The position numbers were made by a program, and so were the translations under genes. Positions 1 to 5,297 of a DNA stretch of 5,297 nt are shown in pieces. Source of the stretch: a virus (lineage: Duplodnaviria; Heunggongvirae; Uroviricota; Caudoviricetes); IMG/VR virus record IMGVR_UViG_2585427793_000007, positions 1 through 5,297 of that record; one strand, written 5' to 3'. Numbering within the stretch: position 1 is the first letter of the stretch; every line of letters starts with the position of its first letter. The notes beneath the pieces were generated by a model. The model was not told the origin of the DNA. It saw only the letters and a program-made list of their open reading frames with translations, and ran no database searches.

Positions 1-969
1 CATAAAACTCTGTGAGACAGTCGTCCAGCTGTTTGTGTCGCTTTGTACGCCATTCTCTGTAATCGTTGCACCTGCATGGCTGCCATTTTTCACTTTCCAG
101 GCCAGGCAGTTATTGGGGGCATCAGCACCGCGGTAAGTGACCGAGGCCATAACAGCCACAACATCACTGTTGCTGTTATCCACCGCATCAAACGTGGCCT
201 GTGCTGCATTCAGGGACGGCGAGAGCATCAGATATCCGGCCTCGCTGTCAGAGGTGTTCAGCCCCGTGACAATATCTTTATTCAGTGAGTTTTTGGCGCT
301 TCCACCGGTAAATGCCGTTACCGGGCTGTATCTGACCTCAATGCTTCCGAGCAGGGCGGGTTCTGCACTATTATTTCTACCGTATGTCACTGTTCCACAG
401 TACATATCACCCAGCATTAACGTGCCGGATGCACCCGATGAAAAAATATTGTCACCACTACCAATACTCACCTGAATTTTGTCAGTCCGGTCATCTGATA
501 CATAAAACGATGCATTTCCAACTAATGAGCGGTTGCAGTACAGACTGGCTGAGACATAGCCGTTTTCGTTTCGCGTTGCGAAAATTTCATAGTAATAACT
601 GGCTGCTTCATCAGGATACGGGGTTGTAAATGAATAGCCATTAATCCTGATGTGGGATGGCGAAGATGAATATTTCTTTCCCGCACTTAATGTCAGACGA
701 AATCCCAGCTGTACAGCTGAGGCTTTTAAGTCCGGAAGTGTGCTGTACAGTGTGACATATGAGGGTGTCGTAAAAATCAGCCCCGTTCTTTCTACAGTAT
801 TTACGGCCTGAGTGCCACGACAGACGGATGTTACAGAACCGGACATATCATTGATAAGCGTGACACCGTTTTCGTTCAGTGCTGAAATAATATTTGTTGA
901 ATAATAGTTCTCGCACAATCCCTCATTCGCCGGAATTTGTCGGAACCCTTCCAGATTAATAATATTCAA
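1..969 (-). CDS. Hypothetical protein, partial (3' end beyond window start); possible distal tail-fibre / receptor-recognition component
   Basis: Minus-strand frame is open for 323 codons from 969 down to position 1 with no stop; a chance open frame of this length in ~45% GC DNA is very unlikely. Probable TTG start at 969..967, preceded by AAGGGG (revcomp of 976..981) with a 6-nt spacer; the first in-frame ATG (846..844) has no Shine-Dalgarno. Translation begins MNIINLEGFRQIPANEGLCENYYS and is S/T/N/G/Y-rich and non-repetitive. Not listed in the ORF track because its stop is off-window. I do not recognise the family; the fibre role is inferred from position only. Confidence 0.55.
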   Translation of the reverse strand, partial: MNIINLEGFRQIPANEGLCENYYSTNIISALNENGVTLINDMSGSVTSVCRGTQAVNTVERTGLIFTTPSYVTLYSTLPDLKASAVQLGFRLTLSAGKKYSSSPSHIRINGYSFTTPYPDEAASYYYEIFATRNENGYVSASLYCNRSLVGNASFYVSDDRTDKIQVSIGSGDNIFSSGASGTLMLGDMYCGTVTYGRNNSAEPALLGSIEVRYSPVTAFTGGSAKNSLNKDIVTGLNTSDSEAGYLMLSPSLNAAQATFDAVDNSNSDVVAVMASVTYRGADAPNNCLAWKVKNGSHAGATITENGVQSDTNSWTTVSQSFM

Positions 970-975
970 AATATT

Positions 976-981
976 CCCCTT
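976..981 (-). promoter_or_regulatory. Putative Shine-Dalgarno for the downstream ORF
   Basis: Minus strand reads TAA TAG AAACTAAAT AAGGGG AATATT TTG; the AAGGGG lies 6 nt before the TTG and 13 nt after the stf double stop, which suggests translational coupling. Confidence 0.4.
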
Positions 982-993
982 ATTTAGTTTCTA

Positions 994-2091
994 TTAAGCA
1001 GCAGATAAAACCGCAAACTGCAGTACTGCCCGATCTACTGTCAGTGGCTCATTGGTTTGATATGCTGGTACAAAGAAGGCTCTGTTAACTGCTACCGGCT
1101 CGCTCATCAGGAGTCCGGGTTGTAATTGCATGGTGTTAATGGTTATCGGTTCATGGGTGTTGCGCCCTGACTGAACAAATTTTCTGTTAATTGTTAAAGG
1201 CCCCCTTGTCTGTTCCCCGGACTGAAGCAGCACTCTGTTGATTTGCAGAGCGGGCTTTGGCGTTTCTGACGGAATTTCTGGTGGAATGACGGGCGCACCC
1301 TGAGAAGCCAGAGCCTCCGCGATTAACGCGCGTACAAATGCAGCATTGGCTATCTCATTACCGGATGCATCCGGTGGAGGTACTGGAGACATCGGGGTTC
1401 CCGTAAATTCAGGGCTGTCCAGCGATGCTTTTTTCTGCGTTTCATCCATCACTAACTTTACCGCCTTCGAGGTCGCTGCAAGCGTTTCTGACTCACTGTC
1501 CGTGGCGCTGCTCAGCCGCACAATCCCGTTGTGTTCCGTACTCGCATCCTCTGCAGTATATTTCCTGTCAGCGAGATCATATGCTGCTTTTACCGCCTTC
1601 GGGGTCGCTGCAAAATCTTCACTGCCGCTGTCCGTATCGCTGCTCAACTGCACCAACCCCTTTTGGGTTGTGGTGGCATCCATTGTTCTTATGCTGTCGA
1701 AAATCTTCTTTACACTTTCTGCATATTCGGCTGCCGCTTCCGCATTCGCCCTGGCGTGAGACACCAGTTCCTCAAGGTGGATTATCACTTCAGGCCTGGC
1801 ATTCTGCTCAGTGAATTTCAGTAAAAAATCATTCAGCGCCCCAGGCTGAGAATCTTCGTAAACGGTGATGTCCCCTATATTCGATGGTGGATAACCATCA
1901 ACCAACAGGGTGACGCTGTACTGTCCATACTCAACGTCCATACTGTAACGCCCGGTTTCATCCGATCTGACTGAAGCTACAGTACTTGCCAGCACCGTGG
2001 TGCTGTGACGCCTTGCCGTCAGCTGAATGATGCCATTCTGTATTGGTTTACCTGCACCGTCTTTCAGCACACCTGAAATCTTTACTGCCAT
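994..2091 (-). CDS. stf: Side tail fibre protein, Stf-like, short form of about 365 aa
   Basis: ATG at 2091..2089 preceded by GGGGAG (revcomp of 2097..2102) with a 5-nt spacer; the track's GTG start at 2097 is two codons upstream. N-terminus MAVKISGVLKDGAGKPIQNGIIQL...GRYSMDVEYGQYSVTLLVDGYPPS...ITVYEDSQPG closely matches the lambda Stf N-terminal domain as I remember it. Two copies of the phage tail-fibre repeat motif follow (GLVQLSSDTDSGSEDFAATPKAVKAAYD and GIVRLSSATDSESETLAATSKAVKLVMDETQKKASLDSP). Ends in a double stop, TAA at 996..994 then TAG. Confidence 0.8.
   Translation of the reverse strand: MAVKISGVLKDGAGKPIQNGIIQLTARRHSTTVLASTVASVRSDETGRYSMDVEYGQYSVTLLVDGYPPSNIGDITVYEDSQPGALNDFLLKFTEQNARPEVIIHLEELVSHARANAEAAAEYAESVKKIFDSIRTMDATTTQKGLVQLSSDTDSGSEDFAATPKAVKAAYDLADRKYTAEDASTEHNGIVRLSSATDSESETLAATSKAVKLVMDETQKKASLDSPEFTGTPMSPVPPPDASGNEIANAAFVRALIAEALASQGAPVIPPEIPSETPKPALQINRVLLQSGEQTRGPLTINRKFVQSGRNTHEPITINTMQLQPGLLMSEPVAVNRAFFVPAYQTNEPLTVDRAVLQFAVLSAA
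997..1248 (-). repeat. Five tandem in-frame 51-bp (17-codon) repeats forming the Stf C-terminus
   Basis: Translated units: LQINRVLLQSGEQTRGP / LTINRKFVQSGRNTHEP / ITINTMQLQPGLLMSEP / VAVNRAFFVPAYQTNEP / LTVDRAVLQFAVLSAA (last unit 16 aa). Conserved positions are hydrophobic-T-(I/V)-(N/D)-R, a central Q, a G/P/A turn, and a terminal E-P. DNA-level identity between units is only moderate, so this is an old protein-level periodicity, not a recent duplication. Confidence 0.7.
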
Positions 2092-2096
2092 ATTCA

Positions 2097-2102
2097 CTCC
2101 CC
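2097..2102 (-). promoter_or_regulatory. Putative Shine-Dalgarno for stf
   Basis: Minus strand reads GGGGAG TGAAT ATG, spacer 5 nt. Confidence 0.45.
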
Positions 2103-2133
2103 AAACAAAAAAGGCACCATTTCTGGTGCCCTT
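2103..2133 (-). terminator. Candidate rho-independent terminator between J and stf
   Basis: Minus strand reads AAGGGCACCA GAAA TGGTGCCTT TTTTGTTT: a 7-bp perfect GC-rich stem (GGCACCA/TGGTGCC), extendable to 9 bp with one G-U pair, a GAAA tetraloop, then a T-rich run. It sits 17 nt after the J stop and directly before the stf ribosome-binding site. Confidence 0.55.
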
Positions 2134-2149
2134 ATCCAGGTTATAAAAT

Positions 2150-4222
2150 TCAACTGATACTGATACCTGCTGTTGATTTCTTCATCACCACAACCAGTAA
2201 ATCGCTGATACTTGCTGTGGGATACCAGCCATTTACCAGCCAGGCTGACACAGAAAATTCCAGCCTCATGTGACCGTGACCGGCAGGCATATCAATAACG
2301 CCACTGTAAATCAGCGTATTATCCAGCGCAGTACGGTTATAAATTTCAGCACCGTTTTTCCGCACTATCAGACGGCATGAGGAGTAAATATCAGTATGAT
2401 TTCGCTCATGCTTAGCGCCGCTGAATGCCACCGCCGGAATAACAATCTGTCGGTCAAACGGCTGATCGTCATAAATCCTGACGGTAATGGTCCCTGATGG
2501 CCACCGTTCCGGTGCACGGGAGTCCCGGGGGAAAGCTTTACCCACTGTTTTAACGAGATCGCCTTCAATCTGGTTCGCGGACAGTTTTCCCAGAACCCGG
2601 CAGTTCTTGTTAATCGTGACGTTGTTGAGCGTCCCGGCGTTCGCATTCACGTTACCGCTGATATCCGCATTTCTCGCCGTCAGTCGCCCGTCCGGTGTCA
2701 GGGAAAATGCCGGAGGATTGCCACCACTGGTAATGGTGGGGGCCGTCAGGCGTTTCAGGAACACGTCATTCATGAATATCTGATCACCCTGCGCCACAAA
2801 CATCGGCGTTTCATTTCCGTTTGCCGGGTCAATAAACGCGATACGGTTAGCGGCAACCAGGAACTGGCTCAGTTTACCTTCCTCCGTGTCCTCCATGCTG
2901 AGGCCAATACCCGCGACATAATGTTTGCCGTCTTTGGTCTGCTCAATTTTGACGCCCCACATGGCATTCCATTTATCGTTGGCATCTTTCCACTCTTTCG
3001 AAAACTCCTCCAGTTTGCTGGCGTTATCCTCCGTCAACTCGACTTTTCCCAGCAGCTCTTTACCGAGATGGGATTCGGTTATCTGGCCTTTGAAAAAATC
3101 CAGGTAACCTTCGGCATCATCGCTCGCCCGACCGACAGCCTCCACAAATGCCGATTTGCCAACGGTGTTCACACTGCGGATGTAAAAATAATAATCATGG
3201 CCCGGCCTGATATTGATACTGGCAGCTATCCAGTACAGCGCCGTGCCAAGATAGCGCGCTGTGGTTTCAACCTGTCTGATATCCGCAATCCGCTTTTCCG
3301 AGAACCAGAATTCAAACTGTACCGTCGGGTCATAAACGGCAAGATGCGGCGTGGCGGTTATCTGAAAATAGCCCGGCGTCAGCTCAATCCGCGACGGCGC
3401 TGCCGGTGCGGCAATCCGGAACGATACCGATGCAGGATCGCCCTGCTGCCCCCAGGCATTTGCCGCCCGGACTGTCAGCCTGTAGCTTCCCAGCGCCAGC
3501 TGCCTGAAGCGGTATGTGGTTTCCGTCGTCCGGGCCGTGCTGACCAGCCGCTCACTGCCGTCATCCGCTGCCACGGTCAGGCGAAGCATAAAGCTCACGC
3601 CCTTCACCACCTTCGGTGTGTCCCATCGCGCCAGCACCTGATATTCCCCGCTGTCTGCAGTGACTTCTGCGGTCAGGTGCTGCACCGCTGGCGGCGTGAC
3701 ACCATTCACCGTGCCACTCTGTTCGCCGTCAAAGTGCGCCCCGTTATCCACGATGGCCTCTTTTTCCGGCACATGCTGCACGGCGGTGATGGCATACGTG
3801 CCGTCGTCGTTCTCACGGATACTCACGCAGCGGAACAGTCGCTGGCGCAGCGTCGGCAGCTTCAGCCCCCATACGCTGTATTCAGCAACACCGTCAGGAA
3901 CACGGCTCACTTTTACCTTCACGTCGTCGGTGACGGACTGAACCTCCACGCTGACCGGATTGCCACTTCCGTCAACCAGGCTTATCAGCGTGGTACCGGA
4001 GGATGGCAGCGTGATTTCACGGTCGAGCGTCAGCGTCCGGGTCTGGCTGTTCACCGCCAGCACACGACCACCGGTGCTGATACCGGCATAGTCATCATCA
4101 CAGATTTCAATAACATCGCCCGGTACATGGCGAAGCCCTTCTGCGCCGACGCTGAAATCCACGGTCTGCGTTTCCAGCAGTTCTGTTTTAATCAGCCACA
4201 GCCCGGCGCGGTGTGCCTGCCC
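2150..4222 (-). pseudogene. J: Tail-tip host-specificity protein J, C-terminal ~690 codons; 5' part separated by IS186 insertion
   Basis: Continuous 691-codon frame ending at TGA 2152..2150. Translation is typical of lambda J-family central tail fibre proteins, with fibronectin-III-like segments and a C-terminal receptor-binding region ending ...[24 protein letters not shown].... J-family proteins are about 1100 aa or more, so roughly 400 N-terminal codons are missing. The track's ATG at 4225..4223 is the revcomp of the CAT that begins the IS186 terminus, and the frame hits a stop inside IS sequence 18 codons further up (TAA, revcomp of 4280..4282), so it is not a native start. Confidence 0.8.
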
Positions 4223-4245
4223 CATAAGCGCTAACTTAAGGGTTG
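4223..4245. repeat. IS186 terminal inverted repeat (one end)
   Basis: CATAAGCGCTAACTTAAGGGTTG at the boundary where the J frame breaks. The partner repeat is off-window, so the assignment rests on memory of the IS186 terminus rather than an observed pair. Confidence 0.5.
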
Positions 4246-4393
4246 AACCATCTGAAGAATGCGACGCCTCGGTGCCTCGTTAAGACGATGCCTCGCGTTC
4301 TTCAATTGCGTTTTGTAGGCTGTCAGGGATACTGTCCCACGAATGGCCACCTGTAAGCTCCAGATGACCATTTTTGTTATTCTCCACAACGAG

Positions 4394-5297
4394 TTAGTTC
4401 TTCTTTTCGGATCCGGCACTTCTGGGGGGGAAATCCAGCGATGGCTGGATTATGTCGTCAATTAAAAATGCGGCGAGTAGATTAGCAAATATCCACGCTT
4501 TCGCGAGTTCAGGTTCCTTTGCACGCAAAGCATCCAGGTGCAGCAAACTTTTGAGCCGCTTAAAAGCCAGTTCAATTTGCCATCGCAGACGGTAACAATC
4601 AGCCACTTGCTCTGCTGAATATTCATCTTCCGGTAATGATGTTAGCAATAGCACATGGCCCGCTGCTTCCAGCGTTTCCGCCTGAACTACTCGTCCTTTT
4701 CGACGATTCTCGCTGAGCAGTCGGGTTTTACTGATTAATGCTTTTTCGGGAGGAAGTGATACGGCAATGAGACGTGCCGGAAAGGGAGCTCCGGCTTTTT
4801 TATTACCTGAATTGCCTATCATTACAGTGGTTTCACCGTTCTTACCGCAATCCAGCCCGCGCAGAAAACCCATCATGTCAAAGCGCATTCCTTCTGCAGT
4901 TAACCAGCGCAATCCTCGCCAGTGAACCCGGACGATATAATCAGCTTCTCCAAAAGCAAGTGAGCGGATACATTCGGGACGCGAACCGAATCCCCGGTCA
5001 GCAATGCGTATCTCGTCTGCCGTTTGCGCAAATCGGTCCAGCCGTTCAGCGTCTCTGCTGTCGGTTAGCTCAAAATCAGTGAACTGACAGGTATGAGGAT
5101 CATATCCCATATGTAGTCGCCATTCAGCGCTGCCGCCCCCGGGCGCACTGATTGCTGTTCCATCGACAAGACGCAATCTCTTTCCGCTTGTACAACCCGT
5201 AACTGCGGCGCGTACAGCAAGTGTTTGTGCGGCAAGTATGCCAAACCAGTCGGCGGCATTCCGCAGCCGCTTCAGGAGAGCCACGTCAGATAATGTT
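4394..5297 (-). CDS. insL: IS186 transposase InsL (IS4 family, DDE), partial; 5' end beyond window end
   Basis: Frame is open from the window edge (…TLSD-VALLKRLRNAADWFGILAAQTLAVRAAVTG…) to TAA at 4396..4394. The C-terminal region CYRLRWQIELAFKRLK resembles the conserved Y-R-E-K-type C-terminal signature of IS4-family DDE transposases. The track's Met at 5284 is an internal GTG; the real start is upstream of the window. Confidence 0.85.
   Translation of the reverse strand, partial: TLSDVALLKRLRNAADWFGILAAQTLAVRAAVTGCTSGKRLRLVDGTAISAPGGGSAEWRLHMGYDPHTCQFTDFELTDSRDAERLDRFAQTADEIRIADRGFGSRPECIRSLAFGEADYIVRVHWRGLRWLTAEGMRFDMMGFLRGLDCGKNGETTVMIGNSGNKKAGAPFPARLIAVSLPPEKALISKTRLLSENRRKGRVVQAETLEAAGHVLLLTSLPEDEYSAEQVADCYRLRWQIELAFKRLKSLLHLDALRAKEPELAKAWIFANLLAAFLIDDIIQPSLDFPPRSAGSEKKN

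Follow-up and report, generated by a model that had tools for sequence, protein, structure and literature searches.

We report the interruption of J, the gene for the tip attachment protein or central tail fibre of a lambda-like prophage, by the insertion sequence IS186. We consider it likely that IS186 (transposase InsL, IS4 family) transposed into J of a lambda-like prophage of Escherichia coli 3-373-03_S4 as a simple insertion, leaving the 5′ part of J on the far side of the element. The knocking out of a prophage structural gene by an insertion sequence is a well-known and ordinary phenomenon, but this instance shows cleanly, in a natural setting, that IS186 can use a site departing by one mismatch from its very specific target, illustrates how the CAT end of the element can create a plausible start codon that misleads an annotation pipeline (KEL20244.1), and implies that prophage inventories of the strain should score this prophage as tail-defective.

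The stretch of DNA analyzed here (hereafter the window, 5297 bp) constitutes the entire contig JOQL01000080.1 of draft assembly GCA_000714065.1, as established by exact protein look-up. The source entry for this contig names the strain Escherichia coli 3-373-03_S4_C3, a stool isolate. All annotated genes of the window lie on the minus strand, and the features considered in the analysis are the following (window coordinates):

1..969, minus strand: partial ORF (gene call; 323 of 349 codons) for a hypothetical protein of the side-tail-fibre module, its 3′ end cut by the contig end.
994..2091, minus strand: intact stf, encoding a prophage tail fibre N-terminal domain protein of 365 aa (Pfam phage_tail_N and Phage_fiber_2).
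2110..2133, minus strand: terminator-like hairpin of 10 pairs with a T run, between J and stf; the best such site in the window.
2150..4222, minus strand: 3′ part of J, codons 442-1131 plus stop (nucleotide comparison and Pfam).
4210..4222, no strand: retained part of the IS186 target, GGTG(TGCCTGC)CC, read from the unoccupied allele, with the register taken from four reference copies.
4223..4225, minus strand: chimeric ATG replacing J codon 441 (CGG), from sequence reading; product KEL20244.1.
4223..4245, plus strand: 23-bp terminal inverted repeat of IS186, CATAAGCGCTAACTTAAGGGTTG, at the end distal to the transposase start; both ends of the reference copies match it exactly.
4223..5297, plus strand: IS186, of whose 1339 bp the first 1075 are present before the contig stops; 100% identity to K-12 IS186A.
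4394..5297, minus strand: insL transposase gene, codons 71-370 plus stop (Pfam DDE_Tnp_1; the CDS of the reference copies has 1113 nt).

The inserted element and the interrupted gene

From its terminal repeat onwards, the segment 4223-5297 aligns to IS186A of E. coli K-12 MG1655 with 0 mismatches in 1075 bp, and every test possible within the window identifies the inserted element, as the sequence-only reading had proposed, as IS186 (IS4 family). Four reference IS186 copies carry the repeat CATAAGCGCTAACTTAAGGGTTG at each end, and IS186A, counted from CAT to ATG, measures 1339 bp and carries perfect 23-bp terminal repeats. The C-terminal 300 residues of InsL match PF01609 (Pfam, E=1e-26), and insL and J share the same orientation. 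The element therefore resembles IS186A/B/C of K-12 (IS421) in nucleotide identity (100% over 1075 bp), in the 23-bp repeat, in the InsL DDE transposase and in the type of target, and it differs from them in that only 80% of the element lies in the window and in that its target bears one mismatch (GGTG versus GGGG). Near-identical copies of IS186, annotated as IS186B or IS421, are present in 2158 complete genomes. The window stops inside IS186 and the record holds no sequence past 5297; the far end of the element, previously put at about 1.3 kb from 4223, would by our corrected estimate lie at the window equivalent of position 5561, 264 bp beyond the window end.

The proposal that the element splits J is borne out by an uninterrupted allele, the intact J gene (1131 codons) of a lambdoid prophage of E. 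coli TD225-C4. The minus-strand ORF at 2150..4225 encodes 691 aa and is colinear with residues 441-1131 of this full-length J, from which it differs by four residue substitutions and by the change of R441 to M; at the nucleotide level, the J part of the window (2150..4222) is 99.2% identical to the uninterrupted gene. Codons 442-1131 of J are all open, with neither stop nor frameshift, codon 441 (CGG) is replaced by ATG, and the first 440 codons are absent from the window. The missing N-terminus had been recognized from the sequence alone, but its size was set at about 400 codons instead of 440.

Pfam analysis of the J fragment identifies, in order, the end of Phage-tail_3, Ig_J, Ig_J_second, Phage_Tail_Tip and Ig_GpJ_C. 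The last four are all present, each with E<=1e-34, whereas Phage-tail_3 (PF13550) is represented by profile positions 109-162 of 164 only. The same Pfam search finds FNIII-A_GpJ (PF24801) absent from the 691-aa fragment, and full-length J relatives carry both PF24801 and a complete Phage-tail_3. Because PF24801 is absent and Phage-tail_3 is incomplete, the 691-aa ORF is, on its domain content, a fragment of J and not a functional J. Its C-terminal 690 residues resemble lambda gpJ in presenting, in the same order, the end of the hub, two Ig/FNIII domains, the fibre and the C-terminal receptor-binding domain; in contrast to gpJ (1132 aa), the ORF lacks the N-terminal 440 residues, which hold the hub domains. 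The J genes of lambda-like phages 2G7b, 4A7 and similar are 91-94% identical to the window J at the nucleotide level.

Target register and the far side of the insertion

All Megablast alignments of J alleles end at window position 4223 and the IS186 match starts at 4223, so that the J frame breaks just where the element begins, in line with the sequence-only reading. In the TD225-C4 prophage the unoccupied allele reads GGTGTGCCTGCCCCC. Since its longer context reads GGTGTGCCTGCCCCCGACTGG, C4223 is ambiguous and can be assigned either to the target, as the fifth C of its run, or to the element, as its first base. IS186 targets GGGG(N6/N7)CCCC, and 7 of 59 mapped insertions departed from the flanking palindrome at one or two bases (Lee et al. 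2016, PMC5009759). The unoccupied J site, GGTG(TGCCTGC)CCCC, spans codons 441-446 and constitutes a one-mismatch version of GGGG(N7)CCCC, with the start of the IS placed exactly two bases into the CCCC 4-mer, which is the canonical register. The fit to the IS186 target preference that had been noted for a GC-rich tract thus holds in a more exact form.

In the four reference copies (from three complete genomes, plus K-12 IS186A), target duplications measure 10-11 bp when the element is counted from CAT to ATG, and each comprises the core with the two G and two C that adjoin it. Across the phage segment as reconstructed (5545 bp), there are 0 perfect and 5 one-mismatch IS186 target loci. Because the breakpoint falls in register at one of only five near-consensus loci, the coincidence of breakpoint and register lies far beyond chance, and the sequence evidence indicates that this is certainly a genuine transposition into J. 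For this copy, the predicted target-site duplication is the 11-bp TGTGCCTGCCC at 4212-4222.

Under simple insertion, IS186 would have transposed into this near-consensus site so that its transposase-distal end came to abut J codon 442, which is the junction seen in the window. The far side would then consist of the IS end CAACCCTTAAGTTAGCGCTTATG, the 11-bp duplication TGTGCCTGCCC and CCGACTGGTACAGCC (J codons 1-445), and the 5′ fragment of J would end after 13 IS-encoded residues, yielding a predicted product of 458 aa.

Database searches returned neither side of the element elsewhere. The IS186/J junction is present in 0 of 5426 complete E. coli genomes, and it is absent from the species-representative genomes and viral contigs searched. 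A pattern in which the IS end and the J 5′ flank are separated by 6-16 bp, as expected at the far junction, gave 0 matches among viral, species-representative genome and metagenome contigs, a weak negative in that the draft assembly lies outside these collections. Among the cluster representatives matched in a protein search with the J N-terminus, none combined a length of 445-460 aa with >=97% identity, which is likewise weak evidence, given that fragments are hidden inside large 90% clusters. One protein, P0009 (438 aa), was considered as the far-side J fragment and rejected, as it is a contig-end fragment of an unrelated assembly. Starting from the TD225-C4 N-terminus, which is common to the three closest relatives, seven N-terminal fragments were built, one for each duplication length from 8 to 14 bp, and 0 of these 7 predicted fragments were found in the protein collection by exact look-up, a weak test in which a single substitution defeats the match.

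Given the absence of the junction from the 5426 complete genomes and the identity of the IS copy to the K-12 reference, we infer that the insertion is strain-specific, and it is probably recent. It resembles the IS-disrupted genes known from cryptic lambdoid prophages of E. coli, in that a single IS knocks out one structural gene while the prophage module around it stays conserved; it differs from them in that the site at J codon 441 is unoccupied in all 5426 complete genomes.

The alternative that fares best against simple insertion posits that IS186 inserted in J and that later recombination with another IS186 copy deleted, inverted or relocated the far flank, leaving a prophage remnant. The far side of the element lies outside the window and the look-up of the predicted N-terminal fragments was negative, the closest prophage (TD225-C4) has a broken or fragmented tape-measure gene, so that the lineage does decay, and IS-IS recombination is a known process, roughly eight times less frequent in E. 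coli than insertion (PMC5009759). The same rates nonetheless amount to a prior of about 8:1 for plain insertion (PMC5009759), and since the event is confined to one strain and its IS copy matches the reference exactly, further rearrangements have had little time to occur. The negative look-ups, for their part, are uninformative for a draft assembly that lies outside the collections and for an exact match that a one-residue difference defeats. With insertions outnumbering IS-IS recombinations by about 8:1 and the event being young, the 5′ part of J would be expected to lie still on the far side of the element, and we regard subsequent recombination as unlikely.

The junction itself recurs in other assemblies. 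The same region is found in two sibling assemblies (JNMW01 and JNMS01), with 4-5 SNPs relative to the window; one of them corresponds to 3-373-03_S4_C2, and by the naming scheme both derive from other colonies of the same stool sample. The IS186/J junction is identical across the three colony assemblies. A chimeric contig joined at a repeat, which a short-read draft contig ending in repeats at both sides might suggest, as might the few fibre-gene SNPs that point to blurring between paralogous copies among the three sibling assemblies, was rejected as very improbable, because the join coincides to the base with the start of the IS repeat and respects the canonical target register, which a misjoin would not give, and because three separately assembled colonies concur on it.

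The IS-derived start codon and the expected tail defect

The ATG at 4225-4223 is in frame with J, and it is, as had been read from the sequence, a false start derived from the element: its A and T come from the IS186 end and its G is shared. The terminal CAT of IS186 hence supplies an in-frame ATG that leads gene callers to a false "complete" protein of 691 aa. Three GenBank records (KEL20244.1, KDU23284.1 and KDU47194.1) list the 691-aa product of the truncated J as a "phage tail family protein" and treat it as complete, and these "complete" entries starting at the IS-derived ATG are an annotation artefact.

No Shine-Dalgarno-like sequence was found upstream of the chimeric ATG, and a scan of the window revealed no promoter-like site near the IS186/J junction. 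On these two grounds, expression of the J fragment appears doubtful. The IS186 end was also considered as a source of an outward promoter or ribosome-binding site, and this was rejected, neither being found. It is accordingly hard to credit that the truncated J, comprising the FNIII, fibre and receptor-binding domains, is produced from the ATG supplied by the IS and has been kept for some function, for instance to block a receptor. The start codon is in frame, codons 442-1131 are fully open, and the co-orientation of insL makes read-through transcription conceivable; beyond the missing initiation signals, however, the ATG is a by-product of the fixed end sequence of the IS, and the fragment is unique to one strain and thus shows no sign of selection. 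That such a hub-less J fragment, possibly together with stf, works in soluble form against related phages, by blocking their receptor or serving as a decoy, is extremely improbable.

In lambda, J is the protein on which tail assembly begins, and mutants in J are tail-less. Structurally, gpJ is a trimer of 1132 residues in which the hub domains, located beneath the gpM ring, close the tail cone; these hub domains are N-terminal, and the FNIII domains, the central fibre and the receptor-binding domain come after them (Ge and Wang 2024, PMC11101478). Because the fragment in the window lacks the hub part and lambda tails start on J, this prophage should be tail-defective unless J is supplied in trans. 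Extrapolating from lambda biology, a J protein without its N-terminal hub domains would be unable to nucleate a tail tip, and the prophage would at best make tail-less, non-infectious heads if no other prophage supplied J.

Related prophages and neighbouring genes

Over positions 1-4223, the window is 99.4% identical to the TD225-C4 prophage, and the other closest prophages sharing the J/tail-fibre module over this interval, those of E200086 and cS51a, reach 99.3% and 98.9% identity, respectively. The three prophages occupy different chromosomal loci, beside tRNA-Ser/hyaA (TD225-C4), yecD (E200086) and ydfJ (cS51a). Within the window, stf (994..2091) differs from its TD225-C4 counterpart by 1 nt. 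The ORF at 1..969 has no Pfam match, and its full-length TD225-C4 homologue matches phrog_8291, a family of unknown function.

The sequence-only reading had taken the element for most likely a decaying prophage and had deemed the intact stf next to J all the more worthy of attention. The interruption of J agrees with the former description, but no other lesion was seen within the window. The significance attached to stf is not supported: an insertion found in one strain and involving a reference-identical IS is probably recent, and intact neighbours of J are hence to be expected, decay requiring more time than has passed.

Several ORFs seem to share the side tail fibre, first a 365-aa N-terminal-domain protein and then a 349-aa ORF (window 1-2091; TD225-C4 prophage 4235-8091); relatives continue beyond the 349-aa ORF with a 369-aa "phage tail protein" and a gene for tail fibre assembly. 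As in lambda, stf comes after J in the window. The terminator-like hairpin at 2110..2133 lies within the 58-bp gap that separates the J stop from the stf start. In contrast to lambda-like phages, the window has no lom between J and stf; the gene is missing there from this lineage and present there in many lambdoid relatives.

Differences among the colony assemblies map to window positions 217, 498, 513, 1114, 1119 and 3500, nearly all of them in fibre genes. Four to five differences per 5 kb exceed what is expected for clonal colonies of one sample, and these SNPs probably reflect paralogous prophage copies blurred by short-read assembly.
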